Virus record (IMG/VR): IMGVR_UViG_3300029288_000060
Location: 1 to 64,000 of that record
Direction: 5' to 3' (one strand)
Length of the DNA: 64,000 bases
Origin: a virus
Taxonomy: Duplodnaviria; Caudoviricetes
This document shows positions 399 to 43,487 of this stretch, one piece after another. The notes below the pieces were generated by a model. That model did not search any database. It was not told the DNA's origin and worked only from the letters and a program-made list of their open reading frames with translations. Each line of letters starts with the position of its first letter. Position 1 is the stretch's first letter. Both the position numbers and the translations under genes were made by a program.

Positions 399-3300
399 AT
401 GTTCAGTATTAAAAGTTCTTTTGTTGATTGTCTTTCTTGTGAATTGTTTTCAGAACCATCTTGTATATTAGAGACCAATGTAAAATACTTAAATGAAGTT
501 AAAATTGTTTTTATTGCCGAGAATCCTGGTAAAGATGAAATATTACAAGGTTTACCATTAGTAGGTAAAGCTGGAAAATTATTTAGAAAATATTTTGAAA
601 AATTTGGATTAAATAAAATACCATATCTTTTAACCAATGTTGTTTTATGTCAAACTTTAAAAGAAGATGGAACAACAGGAAATCCATCACTTGAAGTTAT
701 TGAAAAATGTAAAGTAAATTGTATGAAAATTATTGAAAATTGTAATCCTGATTTAATAGTTTTGATGGGTTCATCTCCAACAAGTGCTTTTGGTTTATTA
801 CCTAAAGGAACAGGTATTACAAATATTAGGGGTGAGAAATTTAGTTGGAATAATAAAGATGTTTTTATTATGCTACATCCTTCATATATTAATAGAAATA
901 AAAGTATGGAACCAACTTTTGAAAATGATATGAAAAAAGTTGCGGAATTAATTGGAATAAAAACAATAACAGAACAACCAAATAAAGTAAATATAAAAAC
1001 AAAAAATGGAGTTTTCTATTATAAAATTCCAGATAAATATTATACATCAAACTATAAATTAATTGATGTACAATTTTTAAATAAAACAAATGAAGTTTTA
1101 TATATTTTTAGAGATAAAGATAATAAAAAAGAATATTATAAGACAAATGATGATTATGTATGTTATCAAATATCTGACGAGAGTAAAGCGAGAAAAGTAG
1201 TTAATTATAATGATTTAAATCAGATAGTAGTTTCATATAAAAATAAATATTCATTGAATCCAAAAATAACTTATGAAGGCGATTTAAAAATTACAACTAA
1301 ACATGCAATGGATTATTATATATTAAAAAAGGAAGAAGAACCAGATTTACCAATGAATATTATGTTTTTAGATATTGAAACATACTCAGAAACAAAGGTT
1401 CATAGTAACGCAATAGATGTTGAAGACGCAATTGCAATAATTAGATATTCATATAATGGAATAAAAAAATCATTAGTATTAGATCCAAAAATTTTAAAAA
1501 TAACTGATCAAAAAATTGATTTAAGTAATAAAGAAATTGTCGTGTGTAATTCGGAAGTAACATCATTAAATACATTTTTTAATGATATAAGAAATTTAGA
1601 TCCGAATTTTATTAGTGGTTGGTATAGTAATGATTTTGATATGCAATATATAATAAACAGATCCAAAAAAATCAATGTTGATTGCAGAAAAATATCAAAT
1701 TTTGGAGAAGCAGATTATAACAAATATCAATTTTATCCTGATGCTGCTGGAATTGTTTTTTTAGATATGTTAGAATTATATAAACAATTTACATTTGGCG
1801 GCAGGGAAAGTTACTCATTAGATTTTATTGGTAATTTAGAGTTAAAAAAAGGAAAAAATGAAAAAAGTTCTGACTTTTCAGATTTATTTAGAACAGATAT
1901 AAATCGTGCTATTAGGTATAACATTAATGACGTTGATTTATTGGAAGAATTAGATAAAAAATTGAAACACATCTTTTTTCAAGATGAATTAAAAAGAATT
2001 TGTAAAACCAGCTTTAGAGGATCAAAATCTGTCTTAGGTCAGATAGATTCCTTATTAGTCTCATTTTTGAAAGAAAAAGGATATTCCTCAAAAAATTCAG
2101 AAGTTATTGAAGGGGAAGAAAAATTCGAAGGTGCATATGTGCAAGAACCTATTGTTGGGGCACATGATTATATAGTGGATTTTGATTTTACTTCTCTATA
2201 CCCATCGTTGATTTTAACTTATAATATTGGTGTAAATACTTTTGTAATGAAATTGAAAGATTATCATATGGGTTATGATTTAGTTTACAATCCTGAAAAA
2301 TTACCTGAACAAATTGATGTTGTTATTGATCCTGTTTTTGAAAATAAATCTGTTACTATTGCTAGAGATCAATTATTAAATAAAATAAAATCTAGCAACT
2401 TGGTTTATACAATCAATGGTTGTTTTTTTAAAAACCATAATACTGAATTGTCATATTTTGCAGAAGTGTTAGAAATGTTATTAGGATCTAGAAAACTTTA
2501 TAAAAAGAAAATGTTTGAAGCAAAAAATGCAAAAAACGAAGAAAAAGAAAAATTGTTTGATACTCGTCAGTTAGTATACAAAGTTTTAGCTAACACTTGT
2601 TATGGAGTTCTCGCAAATAAAGTATTCAGATTTTTTAATATTGATTCTGCAAGATCAATTACATTGAGTGGTCAGGAAGCTATTAAAAATGTAATGATAT
2701 CTGGAGAAAATTATATTGAGTCTAAAAGAACAAATAAACCATTTGAAGTTAAAGAGATTACTAAACAACAAATGTTTTCTGATAATATGGGTCTAACATT
2801 TAAAAATCTTGTGACAGGAGACACCGATAGTATCTTTCTAAAATATGATAATATCATAGATAAAACAAAGTCTAACGAAGAAAAATTAGATTTTGTAAAT
2901 AATTTAAATAAAGAAGTACAAGATTTTCTAAACAATGATATAGTAAAAAGAATTGTTTTAAAACATAATGTTCCAGAAAATAAAAATAGATTAGATCTTA
3001 AAAATGAGCTAGTAATTAAAAGAGGGTTATTTTTAGCTAAAAAAAGATATGCTCTTTATATTATTAGTCAAGAAGGGAATGAAACTTCAGAAATTAAAGC
3101 TATGGGATTAGAAATTAAAAGATCGGATTTTTCAAAAGTCACAAAAGATTATTTAAAAGAGGTTCTTGAACTAATATTAAAACCCGAGAAGTTAACAATG
3201 ACAAAAGTATTAAATTATGTAACTGACAAACAAGAAATGTTTACTAAGATTATTTCATCTGGAGTTACTAAAATTGGAAGACCTGTATCATTTGGAAAGA

Positions 3301-3641
3301 AAATTTCAGAATACAAGACTTTATCTCAAGGTGTAAAGTCAATGGTTAACTGGAATAATTTGGAATATCATATATTTGATGTTGGATCGAGAGCGTATTT
3401 GTTCAAATTAAAAGGTATTGATTTAGATAAAGCTCCAGAGGAGGTAAGATTAAATTTTGATAAACATTTTCTAAAGAAAGGAGTTAAATTAGAGGTCATT
3501 GCAGTTCCAGAAGAAGTAGAGAAACTACCGGAATATTATATTATAGATGTAAAAGATATGGTAAATTTTGCGTGGACAGATAGATATAATTTATTATTAG
3601 AACCATTAATAACTAAAAAACAAGAAATATTAACGTTTTAA
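399..3641 (+). CDS. polB: Family-B DNA polymerase with N-terminal family-4 uracil-DNA glycosylase domain
   Basis: UDG: CxxC, AENPGKDE, GKAGK, TNVVLC, HPSY. Exonuclease: FLDIET, YNINDV. Polymerase: DFTSLYPS, KVLANTCYG, GDTDS, KKRY. Confidence 0.95.
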   Translation: MFSIKSSFVDCLSCELFSEPSCILETNVKYLNEVKIVFIAENPGKDEILQGLPLVGKAGKLFRKYFEKFGLNKIPYLLTNVVLCQTLKEDGTTGNPSLEVIEKCKVNCMKIIENCNPDLIVLMGSSPTSAFGLLPKGTGITNIRGEKFSWNNKDVFIMLHPSYINRNKSMEPTFENDMKKVAELIGIKTITEQPNKVNIKTKNGVFYYKIPDKYYTSNYKLIDVQFLNKTNEVLYIFRDKDNKKEYYKTNDDYVCYQISDESKARKVVNYNDLNQIVVSYKNKYSLNPKITYEGDLKITTKHAMDYYILKKEEEPDLPMNIMFLDIETYSETKVHSNAIDVEDAIAIIRYSYNGIKKSLVLDPKILKITDQKIDLSNKEIVVCNSEVTSLNTFFNDIRNLDPNFISGWYSNDFDMQYIINRSKKINVDCRKISNFGEADYNKYQFYPDAAGIVFLDMLELYKQFTFGGRESYSLDFIGNLELKKGKNEKSSDFSDLFRTDINRAIRYNINDVDLLEELDKKLKHIFFQDELKRICKTSFRGSKSVLGQIDSLLVSFLKEKGYSSKNSEVIEGEEKFEGAYVQEPIVGAHDYIVDFDFTSLYPSLILTYNIGVNTFVMKLKDYHMGYDLVYNPEKLPEQIDVVIDPVFENKSVTIARDQLLNKIKSSNLVYTINGCFFKNHNTELSYFAEVLEMLLGSRKLYKKKMFEAKNAKNEEKEKLFDTRQLVYKVLANTCYGVLANKVFRFFNIDSARSITLSGQEAIKNVMISGENYIESKRTNKPFEVKEITKQQMFSDNMGLTFKNLVTGDTDSIFLKYDNIIDKTKSNEEKLDFVNNLNKEVQDFLNNDIVKRIVLKHNVPENKNRLDLKNELVIKRGLFLAKKRYALYIISQEGNETSEIKAMGLEIKRSDFSKVTKDYLKEVLELILKPEKLTMTKVLNYVTDKQEMFTKIISSGVTKIGRPVSFGKKISEYKTLSQGVKSMVNWNNLEYHIFDVGSRAYLFKLKGIDLDKAPEEVRLNFDKHFLKKGVKLEVIAVPEEVEKLPEYYIIDVKDMVNFAWTDRYNLLLEPLITKKQEILTF

Positions 3642-13532: not shown

Positions 13533-14048
13533 ATGATTTTAATGGAAGTAGCTTATAATTCAAGGAATGAAGATTTTGATTATCTTGCGGAATATTTAAT
13601 TGAAAAACCTGGTCTTACATTAACTGAAGCAAAAGAACTTATTTTTCTTATTGAAGAAGATAAAGAATCTGTTTTAAAGAAAATAAAAGCTGGCGCGAGT
13701 AAAAAGCTTGCAAGTCTGAAAGCGTGGTATCAGAAACAGGCTGCTAGTTTAAAAGCGAAATTTACAGGCACTAAATTGGCACAGAAACTTGCAGAGTTGA
13801 AAAAAGCATATCAGAATAAACTAAGAATAGTAAAAAATGAAGCAGAATCTGCTGGCAAAAAAATATCAGGTCGCGCTTTCAGAATGAAAACTGCCGTAAA
13901 AGCCGCCTACAGAACACTTCCTAAAAAGGGTAAAGTTGGTCTCGCAATTGGTGCGGGTGCTGCAGGCGCTGCAGGTGTTGGTGCAGGTTTGGCCGCATAT
14001 CGTGCAAAAAAGAAAAGACAAGAAGCTGTAGCAGCAAAAAAGAAATAA
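13533..14048 (+). CDS. Lys/Ala-rich putative virion protein
   Basis: Acidic N-terminus, basic body, C-terminal GLAIGAGAAGAAGVGAGLAAY; promoter motif at 13462. Confidence 0.6.
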   Translation: MILMEVAYNSRNEDFDYLAEYLIEKPGLTLTEAKELIFLIEEDKESVLKKIKAGASKKLASLKAWYQKQAASLKAKFTGTKLAQKLAELKKAYQNKLRIVKNEAESAGKKISGRAFRMKTAVKAAYRTLPKKGKVGLAIGAGAAGAAGVGAGLAAYRAKKKRQEAVAAKKK

Positions 14049-14148: not shown

Positions 14149-17100
14149 ATGACATTACGAGATACATTTTCTAAACTAAAAACTACAATAGTAGGTACTA
14201 AAACATCCGGAATTGACTCCAAATTAGATAGCGCAGTTCGCGACATTATTGCATATAAATCAAATTCTGGAAGAAATGGTTATATAGATTTAATTAAAAG
14301 TTTAATATCCAAGGGTGGTTCATTAGATATTGGACAAAATGTAATGCAACAAGGCACTACTCCAGCAACATTTGGTCAAGGAGGAAGATTACAAAGATAT
14401 GTTGCATATTCTGCAATAGTATCTCATATAAACTATTGTCAAAGAGCGTTAGATGTATTAGTAGATAACATTTTAGCTCCGGATGATATAACAAAAACAT
14501 CATTAGAAGTAAACGCAAAATCTCAAAATGAATCAAATGAAAATGCAGAATCCAATGTTAAAGATGTGGAAGAAATTATTAAGAAATTAAAATTAGAAGA
14601 ACGTTTGGATATGATAGTAAAAAATACTTTGGAATACGGGGATTTCTTTTGTGAAATAGCTGATTCAAAAACTGCATTGACGAGTAAATCATCATTCTTA
14701 TCTGAATCTATTATTAATATCATAGAATATGAAAAAACAAGAACAAAAGAAGTCATAACAGAAAAATTAGAAGGAAAAGACATTAAAATTATAATGGATT
14801 TTTCAGCTCTTGATGATATTATTAACAATGATTCATCTAATAAAAAAGTTGTTAGTGATTTAGATGATAAGCAAAAAAGGAAAAAACTTAAACCCGAAGA
14901 TTTACATTTACTTTTTTATGAACCAAGAAGAGTAGTTAAATTACAAAGTGATATTTTTCCGATTTGTTTTGGATATCTAATATTTCCTGCATCATTATTG
15001 TCGCCTGCTTTAATGGTACAGAACCAAACTGTAAATGCCATTTGTCAGTCAATTTTAAAATCAGTAGAAAGAAAAATTCCTGGCTTAAGCGACCAAAATG
15101 TTAATACAAGAGATCTTGAAGATATTGTTAGAAGTATGATTAAAGAAACAGATTTTACTAAAGCTATGAATATTAGATATGTACCGCCAGATAGAATGCA
15201 GCACTTTCAAAGACCCTCAACAAAGTATTATCCATATGGAGAATCAATATTTGATTCAGTACAATTTAATGCGAAAGTATTAATTGCTATGGAAACCGCC
15301 TTAGCAATTTTAAGATTAAATAGATCAATTGAAAAAAGAAAAATTGCTGTTGAAGTTGGATTACCAAGAGATGCTGAAAAGGCAATTGAAAAATTAAAAG
15401 AAGAATTTAAAAGACGAAAAGTTAGTCTTGATAGTTTTGGAAGTGTAGATACAATTGCATGTTTAAGTCTTGAAACAGAAATAAGATTAACTAATGGTAA
15501 AAAAATTACATTATCTGAATTAATTAAATTATTTAATGAAGGTCATCAATTTGAAATATATGCTTATGATCATAATACTGGAAAAATTGCGCCAGATAAA
15601 GTTGTATCAGCTAAAGTTACAGGAAAAAATGTAAAAGTAATGAAAATTACATTAGATAATAATGAAAGTGTAATTTGTACAGATGAACACTATTGGATGT
15701 TAAGAGATGGAACATATTTAATGGCAAAAAATTTAAAAGTAAATGATAGCTTAATGCCTTTAAATAGAAAATCAACAAAGAATACAACAAACGAAGGTTA
15801 TACTTATGAAATGATTTATCAACCTGGTATTGGAAAATATGAATTAACTCATCAAGTATTTGCAAATTATTTAAACTTGTATGAAGATGGACAGAAAGAA
15901 GTTATACATCATATTGATAAAAATCCTAGAAATAATGATACTAAAAATTTAGTTGGATTAACAAGGAAAGACCATTCATATATACATTCAAATGAAGATG
16001 CTAATGGTGGAAATATTGGAAAAACACAAATTATAATCAAGAGAAAATGTATAATCTGCGGAAAAGAATTTGATGTAGAATATTTTTCTGGAACAAGTTG
16101 TTGTTCAGAGGAATGTTTTAGAAGCTACAAAAAAGAATATAGTAAAAAATCTTGGCAAGCAAGAATTGGTAAAAATGAATACGAAATTTTAAATATGAAA
16201 TGTTTCTTTTGTGGTAAAGAAATAACAATATTTAAATCAAAATTTAATAAAATGAAAGAAATATATAAAAATATCAAATTAGTTTCTTGTGATGATCCAG
16301 AATGTAAAAAACAATTAGATTACGCTAAGAGAATAAAAAATACTAATTTAACTCCAATTGAATATGTGAATTGCATAATTTGTGGAAAATTATTTATCAA
16401 GAAAAAAAATAATGAGAAAATAAATTTTAATATTTGTAGTAAAACATGTGAAGGAAAAATTGGAAATGAAGTTAGATGGGGAAGATTAAAAATTGAAAAA
16501 ATAAAAACAAAATGTATTCATTGTGGTAAAGAAATTGAAATAAGAAAAAGTTTATATGATTCAAGAATATTTCAATCATGTAATAATATGGATTGTGCCA
16601 GAAAAAATGCAGCATTGCATATTCTTTATAAAAAGAATAATAATAAATTATATTCTGATATTGAAACAGGAAATTGTATAATTTGTGGTAAACCTACAAT
16701 ATTTAATGAAAAGAAATCTGGATTTTCATATCATACTTGTGGTAGCAAAAGTTGCAGTTCTACAGTAATGCACAGATCATTTGGTAATAAGATTGTCCAA
16801 GTTCCTAGTAATACAGTTAATATGGTTATGAATCATAAGATAAAATCAATTGAATATTTAGAAGAAAAAATGGATGTTGGAGATATTCAAACAGAAAAGT
16901 TTCATAATTTTGGATTACAAGTTGGTGTTTTTGTCCATAACAGCCAAATTACAAGTTTTGAAGATATATTTATACCACAAAAAGATGGTAAAGCGTATGT
17001 TGACATTTCATCTATGACTGAAGGGATGGCAGATACAAGATCTAAAACTGATGAATTAAAATTTATTAGAGACTCAATAGTTGCAGGTCTTGGTGTGCCA

Positions 17101-25952: not shown

Positions 25953-26150
25953 TTAATCGTCGTCCACTCGGAAAAAAGATGATTTATCAAAACTTTTTAT
26001 ACAGCCCATACAAATACTAATATCAAGAAAGTTATATCTTCCTTCATTACAAGCGATTGCTTTTTTACATTTATTGCAATAGGTTACTTTTGGACATTTT
26101 CCTTTACAATCTCCATATAAAAAAAATGGAAGTCTGACATTGTTTCCCAT
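25953..26150 (-). CDS. Small Cys-rich hypothetical protein
   Basis: Several CxxC motifs; start uncertain. Confidence 0.5.
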   Translation of the reverse strand: MGNNVRLPFFLYGDCKGKCPKVTYCNKCKKAIACNEGRYNFLDISICMGCIKSFDKSSFFRVDDD

Positions 26151-26214: not shown

Positions 26215-26255
26215 TGGTGAGACAATGAATATAAAACAAATTCATTGTCTCACCA
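26215..26255. other. Perfect 16-bp hairpin downstream (minus sense) of the pentamer array
   Basis: TGGTGAGACAATGAAT / ATTCATTGTCTCACCA; no clear U tract on the minus strand. Confidence 0.75.
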
Positions 26256-26302: not shown

Positions 26303-26617
26303 GCCTCGCATTAACGAAACCCTACGCTACCCCGCAGCACACCACTCTTGCGTTACCATACGTAACTCGATCCCACTTCGCTTCTCAATAACAACACTTC
26401 CCTTTACCACGTACCACGCCACTTCGCCTTTACATAAATTTACAACACACCGCTCCACATTTACATTACTTTTGCGCCTCATTACTACACTTTGCACAAC
26501 TTTACCTTCGCGAATCATCACACCGCTCCGCTTCGCCTTTACAACACTATAATTCACGTCACTATACTATACCTTTGCGCGACCTCACCTAGCGCGACTT
26601 CGCTTTTGCTTTACCTT
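26303..26617 (-). repeat. Degenerate pentamer array (NNN-G-Y)n, about 61 units with 1-nt phase shifts; candidate guide-RNA array for the adjacent Cas7-like protein
   Basis: Manual minus-strand parse: 53 of 61 units end in GT/GC; 10 units are hexamers (e.g. AAAGGT, AAAGGC) that divide the array into mostly 31-41-nt segments; more GC-rich than flanks. Confidence 0.85.
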
Positions 26618-26651
26618 GTAATCACTCAAATTAATGAATGTTACAAATATG

Positions 26652-26685
26652 ACTGGGAAGGAATTAAACATTTTTCCTTCCCAGT
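26652..26685. other. 12-bp hairpin between Cas7-like stop codon and array
   Basis: ACTGGGAAGGAA / TTCCTTCCCAGT. Confidence 0.75.
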
Positions 26686-26695
26686 TATTTAAAAC

Positions 26696-27365: not shown

Positions 27366-27587
27366 TTAGTCCTCATTAAAAATTATTATACAATTACTAT
27401 TTGGAGTTCCACACATATTATCAATATTACAAGTACAACCAGTTTCATGACGAAGACCAGATACTCTAATTTTAATTAGGATTTCTTTGATGGTAAGTTC
27501 TTGAAAAAGTATGTCAAGGTCATCGTCATTTTTAAGGAAAACACAAAAATTAGAGTACATTTCTAAGAGAGATTTTAAGTTTTTCAA
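27366..27587 (-). CDS. Small hypothetical protein
   Basis: TTG start with SD AGGAGG; Cys-rich C-terminus. Confidence 0.55.
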   Translation of the reverse strand: MKNLKSLLEMYSNFCVFLKNDDDLDILFQELTIKEILIKIRVSGLRHETGCTCNIDNMCGTPNSNCIIIFNED

Positions 27588-36608: not shown

Positions 36609-39600
36609 TATTTATCCATTAACAACAACAACTGTAAGCCCATTTGCCGAATATAACAGCAATATTGTAAATCGACTCACGAGAATGGTTACCCTTGGAG
36701 AGAATTGTATTAAAGGGACACATTCATGTGAGGTAGAGATAGATACAACTTCGCCCACAACCTGTTTAACTATTTCTGAAGGCACTTTCTTTAAAGATGA
36801 TTGTATTCATTCAATTGATGCCGAGTTTAGCGTTGATATGTCTGAAGAAGACTTCTATGCTGATCCATCTGGTGGTTATTGGAATGAGGCAGGGTATTAT
36901 TTAATTGCTGCAGATTATACTTATACGAAATCAAAACCCGCACCAAGAGTTTCAATTAAAATTTTTAAACCAACACAATATGCTTTATTAAATACTGGGT
37001 ATTTATTCTTAAAAGCAGTTCTTGTTGCATTTAATGGCGTTGGTTTTGAAATTGTTTCTGTTCATGATTATTTACCAACTAATCCATTAGTTAGAAGAAC
37101 TTATGCAAAAATGTATATTGATTGTGAAGATACTCTTCCTACTTTTGTAACTTCTAGAGATGAAGGCAGAATTATATACACAAGAGATAATGAAGGTATT
37201 TATTTTGGTCAGTCTGGAAGATGGGAAGCAGTTCAAGCAATTAGAGATGAAATTGATACAATAGCATGTACAGTTGGTCAATTAGCTTATTTAGGTTTAG
37301 ATGGTGCAGTTTATCCTGCAATTGCAAATTCAAACGCAACCTTAGCATCTTGTGTAGTTTTACAAGTTGGATATAGATCTGATGGATCAGGTCAGGTCAG
37401 ACTTTATGGTGTTGCTGACAATGTTCCAGTCGAACCTGGAATAACTGTGGTTACTGGAGATGGATGTTATTTATCTTCGAATACACCTGGATGTATTACA
37501 AATCAAATTCCTGCCAATTTTACTCAATATGTTGGTAGGTCTATCACAGATTCCACAGGAACAGATACCGTAACCTTATGGTTCCAACCTGGGTCCGGAG
37601 GTATGTCATCTGGTTCTTCCCTATATGATTATTATCAAGATTTATTAATTACTTCTATTTTCTTAAGAATGTCAATGGATGCTTTTATTAACTCAGATTA
37701 CATAGATTTGGTTAATACCACAGCAGCACTAGACACAGTCAATTATGAAATTGATGGTGAAAATGGAGAAGTATTTCAATCTTTAAATTTGACAGATGTA
37801 AGTTCTGTTGGATATGATGGTACATGTATAACCGCATGTATGGTTTGCGCTCAAGGAACAGTTCAATCAGTCCAAAATTGGTATATAAGTAATAATGGTG
37901 CAGACGCAACCCCAGATTGGGAACAAGTTAGTTTAAATCAAATTCATTATTTCTCAACTGATTATGTAATGGTTACAGGACCATCATCTGGTTCTGGGTT
38001 GACCATTGGAGAATTAGTGGAAGGAGGAACTTCTGGTTTTAGTGGAACTGTAATAATGGATTATTCCACAGATGGAACTCCTCATTTATTAATTTATGAT
38101 ATAACTGGAGCTGGATCATTTACAGTCGGAGAAACTTTAACAGGTTTAAGTTCAGGTGAAACTGTTGTGGTTGCGGCTGGTTCATATAAAAGAGATATAA
38201 ATTATGAAGATTTAAGAGTTAAATGTGAGTTTACAGGAACAGGAACAATTGAAGATTATGGTGTTTTATATGAAATAAACTCGGCAATCGTTGAAACTAT
38301 TCCAGAAAATGCAAGAAATATCGATACACTATACGCAGATTTATATACAATTCCAAGTCAAGACAATGATGGATTAGCAAATTTAACCACCCCAATAGAA
38401 ACATGTAAAACAAATTTACAAATATTTGTTGGTTCTTCTGGAGATTTAGACGCAACTCCATCATATAATAGTCCAGATGGTGGTTACCCATTAATTGTTA
38501 CTCAAGGAAATAGTTTAGAATCTGCAGCTAAACAATTAGATTTACAAGCTTATCAATCATATCTAGATTCTATATATGTTCCTTTACTTAATTCTTCATA
38601 TATGGAAAGATGTTCATATGACGGGTTTGTTGACAATTCACAAATTGATTTAGTATCTTCAGACGCAACTTATAATTCCACGACTCACGCGGTTGATGGA
38701 ACAGCAGGTCAAATACTTATTTCTGATGATATGTATGATACCAGTGCATCATTACCTTATGTTGATGCAACACAAATAAGCGCAGAAGTTAATTTAACAG
38801 CTCCACATACAGCAAATGATTATATTTGGTATTTATCAAATGATGGGGTTAATTATGAAGCCACAGATATAAATACCGTACATTATTTTTCAACTGTACA
38901 ATTACCTGTAGACACAACAGGTGTATTCACGATTGGAGAAATTGTTCTTGGGTTAACATCTGGAACTTTTGGAACTTTTAATGGAATAGCAGCAGACTCA
39001 GTTTCTATTTTATTAAGTGAAGTTGGAGGTTCAGGAACATTTACAGTTGGGGAATATGTTGAAGGACAAAGTTCTGGAGCAATTGCAGACGTTACAGGAG
39101 CTCAAACAAATAGAACTGGAGCTGCATATCAACATTTATACATGATGTGTTTATTTGGAGTTAATGGTGGCCATATAAATAGTTATGGGCTATTATATGA
39201 TATAAATAATTCAATTATCACAACCATTCCACAAAACACAAATAATATATCTCAATTAGCAGCAGATCTATACACAATTCCTAGTTTAGATGATGATGGA
39301 CTTGCAAATCTTCCAGTCCCAATTGAAACATGCAAAAATAATTTAATATCATTTACAGGAAGTTCTGGAGACGCTGACGCTGCGCCAACTTATTCATCAA
39401 GCACAATCGTTACCCAAACTGGAGATTTAGAACAAGCAATTGGTGAATTAGACGTTTCAATTTCTACCACAACTTCAATAATTTCTACGTCAGATGGTGA
39501 CACAACTCCAACAGTTTTAAATGGATCTGGAAAACAAGCAGGAATCTTAGAAACTGTAAATAGCGGAGCTACATCAATCACAACTTTTGATAACGCAAAA

Positions 39601-39771
39601 TCTGGACAAAGAATAATTGTTCATTTTGATGATAATAATACCACATTGGTTAATGGGGCAACTCTTAAATTACAAGGTGGAATAAATTTTCATGCTGCAC
39701 AACATGATATAATAGAATTAATTTCCATAAGCAATGTATGGTATGAAATTGGAAGAAGTATTAATTCCTAA
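36601..39771 (+). CDS. Large virion structural (tail/baseplate-associated) protein with a long internal duplication
   Basis: Ser/Thr/Gly-rich; repeated YGxLYxIN...TIP...ADLYTIPS...DGLANL..PIETCK block. Confidence 0.7.
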   Translation: MANIYPLTTTTVSPFAEYNSNIVNRLTRMVTLGENCIKGTHSCEVEIDTTSPTTCLTISEGTFFKDDCIHSIDAEFSVDMSEEDFYADPSGGYWNEAGYYLIAADYTYTKSKPAPRVSIKIFKPTQYALLNTGYLFLKAVLVAFNGVGFEIVSVHDYLPTNPLVRRTYAKMYIDCEDTLPTFVTSRDEGRIIYTRDNEGIYFGQSGRWEAVQAIRDEIDTIACTVGQLAYLGLDGAVYPAIANSNATLASCVVLQVGYRSDGSGQVRLYGVADNVPVEPGITVVTGDGCYLSSNTPGCITNQIPANFTQYVGRSITDSTGTDTVTLWFQPGSGGMSSGSSLYDYYQDLLITSIFLRMSMDAFINSDYIDLVNTTAALDTVNYEIDGENGEVFQSLNLTDVSSVGYDGTCITACMVCAQGTVQSVQNWYISNNGADATPDWEQVSLNQIHYFSTDYVMVTGPSSGSGLTIGELVEGGTSGFSGTVIMDYSTDGTPHLLIYDITGAGSFTVGETLTGLSSGETVVVAAGSYKRDINYEDLRVKCEFTGTGTIEDYGVLYEINSAIVETIPENARNIDTLYADLYTIPSQDNDGLANLTTPIETCKTNLQIFVGSSGDLDATPSYNSPDGGYPLIVTQGNSLESAAKQLDLQAYQSYLDSIYVPLLNSSYMERCSYDGFVDNSQIDLVSSDATYNSTTHAVDGTAGQILISDDMYDTSASLPYVDATQISAEVNLTAPHTANDYIWYLSNDGVNYEATDINTVHYFSTVQLPVDTTGVFTIGEIVLGLTSGTFGTFNGIAADSVSILLSEVGGSGTFTVGEYVEGQSSGAIADVTGAQTNRTGAAYQHLYMMCLFGVNGGHINSYGLLYDINNSIITTIPQNTNNISQLAADLYTIPSLDDDGLANLPVPIETCKNNLISFTGSSGDADAAPTYSSSTIVTQTGDLEQAIGELDVSISTTTSIISTSDGDTTPTVLNGSGKQAGILETVNSGATSITTFDNAKSGQRIIVHFDDNNTTLVNGATLKLQGGINFHAAQHDIIELISISNVWYEIGRSINS

Positions 39772-39792: not shown

Positions 39793-41451
39793 ATGTCCCA
39801 ACAAACAGCTCGTCAATCAATTGCAAATTATTATATAGATCCTTTAGCAAGTTCCACAGATCATGGAGATTCATCTGTAAATGGAACCATTGCGTGGGCG
39901 CTTTCTCAATTACCTGTGGGTGGAGGAATTATACAATTAGTACCTGGTGACTATAATTTATTGCAAAGATTAGATATTCCCCGTGATAATGTATCAATTA
40001 TAGGATGTGGAAAAACCTCCAGACTTATATTAGACCAATCTGTGACTGATGACTGTTTTATTGATGTTCAGACAAATTTAAATTTTACATTAAAAGATTT
40101 ACAAATATATGGATCTGGTGGATCTGCTTGTACATTACCAGCAATTATTGGAACATTTAATATTGGAGAATTTACAAATTTAAGAATTGATAATGTATAT
40201 TTTAATGAATTAACAGAAGGTGCAATTGACTTTACTAATTTAACTTTTTCAAATATTACTAATTGTAATTTTGAAAATATTGACTCAACTTCTGCAATTA
40301 TATTAACATCAAGTCTACATAATAATATTATTGATAATAATATCATTACGTATGAAGAAGGTATTTTATTAGATACTTGTCTAAATTGTAATGTAAGTAA
40401 TAATAACATTAAATTTATAGGAAACGGAGCTTTTGGTATTTCTATTCAAAATAATTCTATAGACAATAATGTTACTGATAATAACATTGATGGAAATTCA
40501 CATGATATTACTTTTGGAATGATTTATTGTGAAGGTGGAATTAGTTCAGTAAATTATAATAATTTCTCAAATAATACATTTAGAAATGTTGCTCCGGCAA
40601 CAGGAAATGGAATAACAATTTCCAATGGGATTGAAAATAATATAATTGGAAATATTTTTGATTCATTAACTGGTAATGGGGTTGAATTAGTTGGAACAAC
40701 TCATTATCATAATATAACAGGAAATAATTTTAATAGTTTAATTGGTATATCTATAAAATTGGATCAACTTTCTAATTTTAATAACATAATTGGAAATAAC
40801 ATATCTGGAGTTGCAACAATTGGTATTCAATTAGCAGCAACATCAACATATAATAATATTTCTGAAAATCATATTTCTGGAGCTTCAGGAAGTGGAGTTG
40901 AGTTAACAGCAACTTCAAATTATAATAAAATTACAAATAACGAAATATATACTTTAACAGATGGGATAAAAATAGATGGTAACTCAGATAATAATGTAAT
41001 TTCATTAAACTATATTGCATCAATGGGTGGATCAGGAATTTTAATTAATAATGCAAACTGTAATACAAACTCTGTATTTCAAAATAAATTTCTTTCATGC
41101 ACAACTGCAAATATAACCAACAGTGGAACTGACACTTTACAGGATATGCACTTTCTTTCCAGAGTTGCAGTTTCAGACGCAGATAGGAATACATCAGCTT
41201 TATCAAATGATTATTTAGTTGCGTTTACAGCTTTAACTGCACCAAGAGCATATACAATTTCATCAGAAGATGCCGCACAAACTGGGAGAGTATTTATAGT
41301 TAAAGATGAATCTGGGGATGCAGGAACTCACACAATTACAGTTTCAGTCGAAGCAGGAACTATTGATGGTGCAGCGTCAGTTCCTATAAATGGAGATTAT
41401 TCGAGTATAACATTATATGCAATAGGTGATGGAAATTTATCCATTATTTAA
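39793..41451 (+). CDS. Right-handed beta-helix (pectin lyase-like) tailspike-type protein
   Basis: GGIIQLVPGDY, tandem NNIxGNxF/I repeats; C-terminal VKDESGDAGTHTITV. Confidence 0.8.
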   Translation: MSQQTARQSIANYYIDPLASSTDHGDSSVNGTIAWALSQLPVGGGIIQLVPGDYNLLQRLDIPRDNVSIIGCGKTSRLILDQSVTDDCFIDVQTNLNFTLKDLQIYGSGGSACTLPAIIGTFNIGEFTNLRIDNVYFNELTEGAIDFTNLTFSNITNCNFENIDSTSAIILTSSLHNNIIDNNIITYEEGILLDTCLNCNVSNNNIKFIGNGAFGISIQNNSIDNNVTDNNIDGNSHDITFGMIYCEGGISSVNYNNFSNNTFRNVAPATGNGITISNGIENNIIGNIFDSLTGNGVELVGTTHYHNITGNNFNSLIGISIKLDQLSNFNNIIGNNISGVATIGIQLAATSTYNNISENHISGASGSGVELTATSNYNKITNNEIYTLTDGIKIDGNSDNNVISLNYIASMGGSGILINNANCNTNSVFQNKFLSCTTANITNSGTDTLQDMHFLSRVAVSDADRNTSALSNDYLVAFTALTAPRAYTISSEDAAQTGRVFIVKDESGDAGTHTITVSVEAGTIDGAASVPINGDYSSITLYAIGDGNLSII

Positions 41452-41474
41452 TTTTTTAAAAGGAGATTTCATAA

Positions 41475-43487
41475 ATGACAATTCAAAATAAAATTGATGT
41501 TGATCAATTGGGGTCAATAATAAATGTTAATGCCACAGATCATGGAGATGTAAATGAAGTTGGATCTATAGCATACGTTTGTGATTTGTGGAGTGGAATT
41601 GATAAAAGTATAGTTCTTGAAAGAGGTACTTATACAATTTCAACATCATTTGAAATACCTTCAAATATTAATTTAAGAATGAATAATGGAGCAATTTTAG
41701 ATATTGTAACTGGTGTAACGGTAACGATAAGTGGAACATTTGAAGCTGGATTATTTCAAGTATTTGATTGGACAGGAACTGGGAAAGTCATGGGTCTTAA
41801 CAGAATACATGTTGAATGGTTCGGTGCTAAAGGTGATTATGACTATGTAACACACACCGGTACAGATGACACAGCCGCATTTCAGAAAACTATTGATTCT
41901 GTAGGAGAAAATGGTGGTGGAGTTGTACTTGCTTATAGCAAGTATTTAATTTCAGAACTTGTTATTGATTGGAGACATGTCACAATTGAAGGCGGGTTGC
42001 CTTCTTTTGATTATACCGTTGATGGAGTTGCCACAGCGGATCCTGATTTAATGCCTCCATCTGCGCTTATATGTAATTCTGGTATTTACGCATTAATGAT
42101 TAAATATTCAGTATTCCCTCGTACAGGTCAAAATACCGGAATAAGAAATATAGCAATTATATGTGATGTTAGTCCATCTGTTGAATATGGAATTGTTATT
42201 TGTTCTGGAATGAGTGTTATGATTGATGTTCTTGTAAGTTCATTCGATTATAATATTACTACTTTTTCACAAAATTCTAATGTTTATGACAGAGTAGCTA
42301 TTTATAATGCTCAAAAAATAGGTTTTGTATGTTCACCAATAGGAGTTGCGCTTGATATTCCAACATATCAACACCCTAATATTGTGGCTTCTTTAGGGAC
42401 TATTATGTCATCAACTATATTTACAATTAAAAATTCTCTTATTAGAGGTAATAAATTTGGAATTGTGTTAATGAATGGTGATACCGCAGAAATCAAAAAT
42501 ACGGTAATAGAAGCTAATTCTATGTCCGGTTTATTAATATACAAGAAGACTGACTATGCGGCGGATAATATTCATTTTCAAAATGTATGGTTTGAACAAA
42601 ATTATGCTGGTTTTATTATAACATACCCTGCAAATTCCTACTCAGTAACTGGAATAACTCCATTAAAGTCATCTAGCACAGAATATTTAAAGGGATCTGT
42701 AACAGGTGAATGGACAAATGATTATGTATTACATTATGATGTTGGTTCTCAAATTTGGATAGGATCAGAATTAGAATCTCATGGAGCTGGTGATATACAT
42801 CAGTCTCCTACAAATATAACTTTTAACAATTGTAAATGGGGTGGGGCTGGGAATAAAGATAAACTTTTATATGGCAGATCCATGGAAAATTGCAACTTTA
42901 TCGACATCGATGTTTCTAATGGTGATAAAGATTTGTTATTTTATTTATCTGAATATTCTAGAGATACTTTAGTAAAAAATATGAGATTTTCCGGTGCTTC
43001 AGCATTACTTTTTGAAGCAACTTATATGACTACTGGCATAACCGCAGGAGGAACAAGAGGTATATATTCATATGATAAAACAGGAGAATGGACTCCAGTT
43101 CTTGAAGGAAGTGTAACGCCAGGATCACAAACATATACTCTTCAAAAAGGTTTTTACACAAGAATAAATAATATTATTTTTATTACTGGATCAATAACAT
43201 TATCTAACTTGGATGTCACAACATCTGGAGATATGAAAATTACTGGATTGCCAGGCGTTTGTACTTGGGTACTTGGTAATGTACCATCTATAAATGTTGG
43301 TTATACTAAGGATATTACTTTGAATATAGCAGGAGGATTTTATTCTTTATCTGGTATTATAGTACCCAATACTTCTGAGATTTTATTACATGAGGTTGGA
43401 AATAATGTTCAATCTGTTCCAATTACTCATGCAGATTTAGGTAATGATACAACATTATATTTTAGTGGTTTTTATATGGTTAATTAA
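41475..43487 (+). CDS. Tailspike / receptor-binding protein (beta-helix)
   Basis: EAGLFQVF, VEWFGAKGD...DDTAAFQ; C-terminal GEWTP...GFYTRI. Confidence 0.8.
   Translation: MTIQNKIDVDQLGSIINVNATDHGDVNEVGSIAYVCDLWSGIDKSIVLERGTYTISTSFEIPSNINLRMNNGAILDIVTGVTVTISGTFEAGLFQVFDWTGTGKVMGLNRIHVEWFGAKGDYDYVTHTGTDDTAAFQKTIDSVGENGGGVVLAYSKYLISELVIDWRHVTIEGGLPSFDYTVDGVATADPDLMPPSALICNSGIYALMIKYSVFPRTGQNTGIRNIAIICDVSPSVEYGIVICSGMSVMIDVLVSSFDYNITTFSQNSNVYDRVAIYNAQKIGFVCSPIGVALDIPTYQHPNIVASLGTIMSSTIFTIKNSLIRGNKFGIVLMNGDTAEIKNTVIEANSMSGLLIYKKTDYAADNIHFQNVWFEQNYAGFIITYPANSYSVTGITPLKSSSTEYLKGSVTGEWTNDYVLHYDVGSQIWIGSELESHGAGDIHQSPTNITFNNCKWGGAGNKDKLLYGRSMENCNFIDIDVSNGDKDLLFYLSEYSRDTLVKNMRFSGASALLFEATYMTTGITAGGTRGIYSYDKTGEWTPVLEGSVTPGSQTYTLQKGFYTRINNIIFITGSITLSNLDVTTSGDMKITGLPGVCTWVLGNVPSINVGYTKDITLNIAGGFYSLSGIIVPNTSEILLHEVGNNVQSVPITHADLGNDTTLYFSGFYMVN

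Follow-up and report, generated by a model that had tools for sequence, protein, structure and literature searches.

The stretch of DNA analysed here, the window, comprises the first 64,000 nucleotides of a virus record of 268,812 bp with a G+C content of 27.8%. The genome encodes a Gp23-like capsid gene, as detected by family search, and two tRNAs matched by Rfam, and these features, together with the nature of the record itself, establish the viral origin of the locus described below. On the minus strand there is a gene for a lone RAMP (Cas7-like) protein of 216 aa, P0001 (26696..27346), assigned on the basis of its predicted fold, a G-loop alignment and its homologues. Starting 79 bases downstream of this gene, on the same strand, there is an array of about 60 five-base units interspersed with ten hexamers (26303..26617), which was recognised both by parsing and by a chain scan. 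This arrangement is that of VIPR, a CRISPR-related system first described in 2026 preprints, which is encoded mainly by viruses or proviruses and combines a lone RAMP protein carried by phages (Vipr) with vrRNAs made of pentanucleotide repeats, and the gene is therefore called vipr in the following.

Two inverted repeats accompany the array on the minus strand. The hairpin situated between vipr and the array (26649..26688) has 15-nt arms that are 93% complementary and is not followed by a U-tract, so that transcription reading through from vipr into the array would be plausible. On the 3′ side of the array region, a perfect 16-bp hairpin (26215..26255) is not a canonical terminator, because no U-run comes after it, and may instead act as a stabiliser of the RNA end. 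A promoter-like site, TTGACA-16-TACCAT, lies upstream of vipr on the same strand (27490..27517); it was identified by consensus match alone, and the count of such sites in the vipr region is not above that found in shuffled sequences. No cas families were found among the ORFs neighbouring vipr in Pfam and PHROG searches, and these neighbours have no homologues in 92 related VIPR loci. Just downstream of the 3′ closing hairpin there is also a cysteine-rich ORF of 65 aa (25953-26150, minus strand) with several CxxC-like pairs, for which neither a family match nor a homologue in the 92 related loci was found. Near the start of the window, ORF 399-3641 on the plus strand encodes a phage DNA polymerase of 1080 aa, which, judged from its translation, looks like an N-terminal uracil-DNA-glycosylase-like part fused to a family B polymerase.

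When read on the minus strand from 26617 to 26303, the array is poor in C and is built from five-base units with G as the fourth base and a pyrimidine as the fifth (NNNGY). A dynamic-programming parse divided this strand into 61 units, ten of which are hexamers, and exactly reproduced the ten hexamers claimed in a sequence-only reading of this DNA, as well as the segments of 31, 36, 31, 36, 11, 31, 41, 41 and 36 nt claimed to lie between them. In minus-strand order, and placed by the parse and the GY positions, the first seven hexamers are AAAAGC (26602..26607), AAAGGT (26571..26576), AAAGGC (26535..26540), GAAGGT (26504..26509), AAAAGT (26468..26473), AAATGT (26457..26462) and AAAGGC (26426..26431); the fifth of these is separated by a single pentamer from the sixth, which accounts for the 11-nt segment. 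The eighth, TATTGA (26385..26390), is degenerate, lacks the GY and was placed by the parse only, while the ninth, AAGAGT (26344..26349), and the tenth, TAATGC (26308..26313), again follow the GY positions. The tenth is the last delimiter, and the array decays one unit later.

The GY dinucleotides form a chain that spans 26304 to 26614 and comprises 53 in-register members. Its score, computed for five-base steps, is 34, while shuffles of the same 315 bases (n=2000) gave 2.8 on average and 7.3 at most, and a chain score of 8 or more is reached nowhere else on either strand of the whole genome, making the array unique there. We have used this chain scan in place of a period-5 Fourier scan, in which the array did not stand out, its phase being broken by the +1 slips. 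The slips themselves are regularly placed, since the successive hexamer intervals are 6, 7, 6, 7, 2, 6, 8, 8 and 7 units; a spacing as regular as this was obtained in only 9 of 20,000 shuffles of the unit order, and none of the 20,000 had at least eight of the nine intervals within 6–8 units.

These values bear on the question of whether the stretch is a guide array at all, rather than a product of chance composition, a slippage microsatellite, a coding stretch or a sponge for a host RNA-binding protein. A 76-aa ORF (26327-26557, minus strand) does overlap the array, and the RNA would be C-poor and largely unstructured, as are some protein-sponge RNAs. However, a coding stretch could not show a five-base periodicity, the 76-aa ORF matched no family, Rfam gives no match in the array, and Tandem Repeats Finder called no homogenised repeat there. 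The earlier argument against a slippage microsatellite was right, as the NNN positions carry no information. Since 72 of the 80 homologous loci have an array, unrelated in sequence, that is linked to a RAMP gene (see below), a non-guide nature of the stretch is very hard to credit. A CRISPR array was likewise considered and rejected, since direct repeats of 25–40 nt are lacking at the array, Rfam matched no CRISPR repeat but only the two tRNAs, and no cas families lie nearby.

P0001 has no match in Pfam or PHROG. Its AlphaFold model (pLDDT 85.4, pTM 0.78, built with an alignment of 31 homologues) had as its top PDB matches in Foldseek the type VII Cas7, Csm3, Cmr4 and Cas7-11 proteins (E 5e-8, probability 1.0), and by this model P0001 is predicted to be a stand-alone RAMP-fold protein outside any CRISPR-cas locus. 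Three invariant arginine residues, R139, R142 and R152, are located on a predicted beta-hairpin. While 57 homologues of P0001 were found at E below 1e-3, tblastn searches from this family did not reach the type II Vipr of the Escherichia phage SUSP1, a 195-aa protein whose gene we have located on the minus strand of NC_028808.2 (28474-29061). A profile-to-sequence comparison by hhalign gave an alignment of the two (probability 71%, E 3.6e-5), over 39 columns that cover the C-terminal G-loop only. The G-loop of P0001, GLGQFRNGSYGRF, thereby aligns to that of SUSP1 Vipr.

In this alignment, the numbering of SUSP1 residues C173, D177, W178 and R179 agrees with the structure paper, and their equivalents in the window clade are C194, Q198, F199 and R200, all of which are invariant or nearly so. 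Asp177 is thus exchanged for Gln198 and Trp178 for Phe199, with Arg179 kept as Arg200. According to the 2026 VIPR structure preprint, D177 of SUSP1 Vipr hydrogen-bonds the first G of the GGY motif. The Asp-to-Gln change at this position would fit a repeat from which the first G has gone (GGY to NGY), and it provides a testable structural reason for the altered repeat.

The association of the gene with an array extends well beyond the window. A profile scan of IMG/VR retrieved 80 homologue loci, and a similar array is present beside the gene in 72 of them, nearly always on the gene's own strand, mostly downstream, in about a quarter of cases upstream and in a few on both sides, with the largest arrays reaching 313 units. 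One homologue with 48% identity on an IMG/VR contig has a 30-unit NNNGY array immediately upstream on the same strand, and two Logan contigs have arrays of 66 and 62 units immediately downstream of the homologue. The linkage holds also in Logan contigs (L002, L003) and in four GenBank phage records (L004-L007); the more distant homologues among these, from GenBank gut phages and Hydrogenobaculum phage 1, are accompanied by weaker arrays of the same kind. The homologues are 31–48% identical and the array sequences are unrelated between loci, the grammar alone being conserved. An accessory vap gene beside vipr is typical of VIPR, though not universal; none is conserved here, as every neighbour family is limited to 11 or fewer of the 92 loci. 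Homologues in prokaryote genomes were limited to nine MAG contigs from scattered phyla, which are too thin a basis for searching a pangenome for targets. The window clade, of which at least 90 phage loci were recovered, is large and so far uncharacterised.

Some members of this clade deserve separate mention. A 77-kb phage contig (L020/G002, IMGVR_UViG_3300005541_000008) has giant arrays of 173 and 313 units flanking vipr (38758-39633 and 40287-41890), corresponding to about 100 guides with a spacing of almost always 5 units. On its other strand, at a distance of about 25 kb, the same contig carries a small array standing by itself (13878-14006), which is perhaps an orphan vrRNA locus comparable to those reported for SUSP1-family phages. 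Hydrogenobaculum phage 1 (L007, KP282676.1, complete) encodes a distant Vipr homologue annotated as hypothetical (ALG96927.1, record 15454-16224), and loose runs of GY pentamers are found in the intergenic DNA downstream of its gene; as a named phage, it offers a possible handle on the window clade. In addition, IMG sample 3300045988 contains many distinct VIPR phages (L064, L069, L071, L051, L058, L077 and L083), whose arrays share some identical guides and differ in others, and this sample would be a good data set for studying targets and guide turnover.

When the NNNGY unit is read one base earlier it becomes YNNNG, and the window array is therefore a case of a variant described in 10.64898/2026.04.26.720920, the Methods of which name NNNGG, YNNNG and NNNNG as alternative repeats. 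Seven VIPR types (I–VII) are distinguished in that preprint, and the legend of its fig. S18 describes 'staggered' vrRNA arrays with 1-nt offsets at the vrRNA boundaries; in its Methods and legends, the staggered arrays are not among the architectures confirmed by sRNA-seq. The array is thus explained by a known system and is a new example of the VIPR kind from the 2026 preprints. It is likely, in our judgement, that 26303-26617 holds the array of vrRNAs for a phage VIPR of the staggered, YNNNG-repeat type, in which the hexamers delimit about eight guides.

Since the homologous loci supply many independent arrays, we have parsed 60 non-redundant ones, which resolved into 3413 pentamers, 800 hexamers and 27 units of other kinds. 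The fixed positions of the units are G in 93–99% and Y in about 95%, and the three N positions hold about 0 bits. An A-rich AAAGGY-like word had been claimed for most boundaries of the window array; it is present in six of the ten hexamers there, and the family-wide form of the word, from the 800 hexamers, is [A/G]-A-N-G-G-Y (RANGGY). Position 4 is G in 85% of cases, so that the extra base completes a full GGY, and the unit that follows a hexamer starts with a purine in 90%.

The spacing of the hexamers is conserved as well. Over 740 hexamer-to-hexamer intervals, the mean was 5.25 units with an sd of 1.56; 87% fell within 4–7 units, compared with 31% after shuffling of the unit order within arrays, and the coefficient of variation was 0.30 as against 0.85, with none of 1000 shuffles coming close. 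Many arrays are almost metronomic (for example 6,6,6,6,7,6,6,6,6), and intervals of 1–3 units make up about 8% family-wide. The ends of the arrays follow the same pattern: an array starts about one pentamer before its first hexamer (two pentamers or fewer in 52 of 59) and stops 0–1 pentamers past its last in 42 of 59, internal segments being about 4.4 pentamers long. The units are thus bracketed by hexamers on both sides, in the way that CRISPR spacers are bracketed by repeats.

Comparison of related arrays had been proposed as a check, with gain or loss of whole hexamer-delimited segments as the expected outcome, and this was borne out in part. The L022 array has one whole extra segment relative to the L026 array, and the related arrays L064, L069 and L071 are mosaics in which some segments are identical and others have been replaced wholesale; on the other hand, a 27-nt deletion and some edges of divergent blocks in L064/L069/L071 do not fall exactly on hexamers. 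Such mosaics of near-identical and replaced blocks, together with the fact that some window guides are diverged duplicates starting right after a hexamer (direct-repeat families D1 and D2), would also be expected if the hexamers were evolutionary seams, left by duplication, recombination and addition of guide cassettes and without a role in RNA processing or filament assembly. A neutral junction, however, would not keep a GGY and purine-start logo through 800 instances beside Vipr proteins of 31–48% identity, nor would it bracket both ends of the arrays, and the segments of one array resemble each other in register in no more than the first unit that follows the hexamer. We therefore hold it improbable that the hexamers are seams alone. 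The segments themselves as units of duplication are not supported either, given that their likeness is limited to this first post-hexamer unit.

Taken together, the conserved spacing in 60 arrays, the hexamers at the array ends, the whole-segment indel and the existence of a staggered VIPR type make it well supported, on comparative sequence evidence, that the hexamers serve as guide boundaries. The proposal of unit boundaries enclosing about eight guides of 6–8 pentamers gains from the same four lines of evidence. Points that tell against the overall reading are that some segments, such as that of 11 nt in the window, are too short to be of use as guides, that breakpoints among L064, L069 and L071 do not all coincide with hexamers, that sequence homology to characterised Vipr is confined to the G-loop, that no conserved vap gene was found and that no natural target emerged under any pairing rule.

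In type II VIPR, as reported in the 2026 preprints, one Vipr protomer binds each GGY/NN repeat, the GGY being locked by the G-loop and the thumb, and the NN bases pair with DNA, with one target base in three left out of the pairing. For the window array, we propose that transcription probably proceeds along the minus strand, either jointly with vipr or directly after it, and, taking the solved SUSP1 complex as a model, that one Vipr protomer would bind each pentamer; its G-loop and thumb would grip the constant G and the pyrimidine, and the variable bases would be left exposed for reading DNA targets in a competing mobile element. The hexamers, as pentamers with one extra base, would shift the register by +1 and act as delimiters that split the transcript into about eight guide units of 6–8 repeats (31–41 nt, with 18–24 variable bases), each equivalent to roughly one turn of a Vipr filament. 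Delimiting could be achieved either by RNA cleavage at the hexamers or by a break in register that ends one filament and starts the next.

The near-equivalence of a segment to a filament turn also suggests a different role, namely that the hexamers are spacers occurring once per helical turn of a single continuous Vipr filament, with the whole array, or large parts of it, forming one long guide. The modal spacing of 5–6 units equals the number of subunits per turn in the SUSP1 filament (6 in the binary and 5 in the ternary complex), natural vrRNAs reach 30 repeats according to the 2026 VIPR structure preprint, units of 4–6 repeats would make short guides, and no tail or handle lies between the segments. 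Yet a spacing that varies from 4 to 8 inside single arrays, along with segments of 1–3 units, is hard to reconcile with a fixed helix, and hexamers at both array ends and the whole-segment indel between L022 and L026 also speak against a continuous filament, as does the legend in 10.64898/2026.04.26.720920, in which the offsets are drawn as the ends of individual processed vrRNAs. A single long guide is accordingly an unlikely reading, if one with some appeal, and separate guide units are preferred.

We have also looked for targets of the guides. A local search with about 300–660 guides under skip rules 0–3 against 0.9–1.8 Mb of phage DNA gave no excess of matches over shuffled guides, and five IMG/VR scans and one metagenome scan returned chance-level matches only. 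In the collection scans, window guide 7 under contiguous decoding had 0 matches, as had window guide 4 against viral and metagenome contigs. A long guide from L050, with its third bases left wild, had a single match, in frame at the start of an ORF; this match is probably due to chance, because only one of its ten third bases agrees and the other guides give no support. A conserved guide of L069/L071 gave 27 matches under skip 1 and 82 under skip 0, none of which extends into the hexamer, and those under skip 0 are largely redundant copies of a few contig families.

Self-targeting was checked with 288 guides in 16 phage records that are complete or nearly so, and remained at chance level under all rules, except for one match of window guide 4 (26474-26509, minus strand). 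When decoded as contiguous triplets that include the first three bases of the hexamer, this guide matches 18 consecutive bases at 702-719 on the plus strand, in frame (E-K-C-K-V-N) inside the phage's own DNA polymerase ORF 399-3641. Among 2000 trials with shuffled guides, two reached a match of 18 bases; no outlier arose under the other skip rules, and the matched 18-mer occurs in just six IMG/VR contigs, in unrelated genes. For the whole experiment of 288 guides and four rules, the probability of such a match by chance comes to a few per cent. The match is thus a lead only, which could point to a target in the phage itself or in a relative, or could be a chance event after multiple testing.

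The NNN triplets also show biases in composition. Sense stop codons are depleted among them (81 observed against 129 ± 9 expected), as are CAG and CAA, and the triplet biases correlate to about the same degree with five of the six phage reading frames (r 0.3–0.47), the antisense frame 0 giving a value of about 0. The stop depletion is therefore not taken as evidence for in-frame codon targeting, since CAG and CAA are depleted too and the biases resemble general phage trinucleotide usage in nearly all frames. A bolder scheme would nevertheless join several of the above observations into a different code for the window clade, with three variable bases per protomer, possibly read as contiguous triplets without a skip, the GGY hexamer as a one-turn ruler of the filament, an uncut transcript carrying independent mini-filaments, and a real guide-4 match to the polymerase that is self-regulatory or directed against relatives. 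Taken as a whole this scheme is speculative, and we would not expect it to hold.

With regard to known systems, the class 1 CRISPR effectors (type III Csm3/Cmr4 and type VII Cas7) resemble the window system in protein fold, being its best PDB matches, in the use of one RAMP protomer for a fixed number of guide bases with a thumb that breaks the duplex periodically, and in having guide units flanked on both sides by delimiters. In contrast, the window locus has no CRISPR repeats, no cas1/cas2 or other cas genes, and a period of 5 nt instead of 6 nt; its delimiters are a single extra base in a GGY word in place of CRISPR repeats of 25–40 nt, and most bases of its units are constant or unpaired. 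The similarity to class 1 crRNA spacers that had been pointed out is one of length only, each guide unit containing 18–24 variable bases.

The type II VIPR systems of SUSP1 and of a Pseudomonas fulva prophage are similar to that of the window in having a RAMP protein that is about 200 aa long and contains a G-loop (GxGxxR...GRF) as well as a beta-hairpin carrying Arg, and a phage-borne RNA of 5-nt repeats with arrays located downstream and/or upstream of the gene. On either side of SUSP1 vipr there are long intergenic regions that contain GGYNN runs and hairpin tails. The repeats of SUSP1 are GGY/NN, with 9–16 per vrRNA, as opposed to NGY/NN-plus-one with three variable bases in the window, and each SUSP1 vrRNA comes with a separate leader and ends in a 3′ pseudoknot tail, hexamers being absent, whereas the window units have 6–8 repeats and no tails and are separated only by the GGY hexamers. 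The G-loop residue that reads the first G is Asp in SUSP1 and Gln in the window clade, vap1 is present in SUSP1 with none recognisable at the window locus, and the rule of two bases paired and one skipped, which was shown for SUSP1, may not apply to the window clade.

As described in 10.64898/2026.04.26.720920, the staggered YNNNG variant of VIPR shares with the window a lone phage RAMP gene with an adjacent same-strand array, a constant G and pyrimidine with hypervariable N positions, and a one-base offset at the unit boundaries with no tails or leaders between them. The RANGGY logo, the 4–7-unit ruler, the hexamers at the ends and the absence of a conserved vap gene do not appear in the Methods and legend text of that preprint. 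Bench study of VIPR has so far dealt with type II only, in which the repeat is GGY/NN and each guide is tailed, whereas in the window clade each unit has three variable bases, tails and a recognisable accessory gene are lacking, and guides are set apart only by a one-base slip in a GGY. If confirmed, such an array, at about 35 nt per guide and without repeat overhead, would be about the most compact among known multiplexed guide arrays. To what is known of VIPR, the present analysis adds family-wide statistics on the delimiters, the finding that arrays have hexamers at both ends, and a structural rationale for the change in the repeat.
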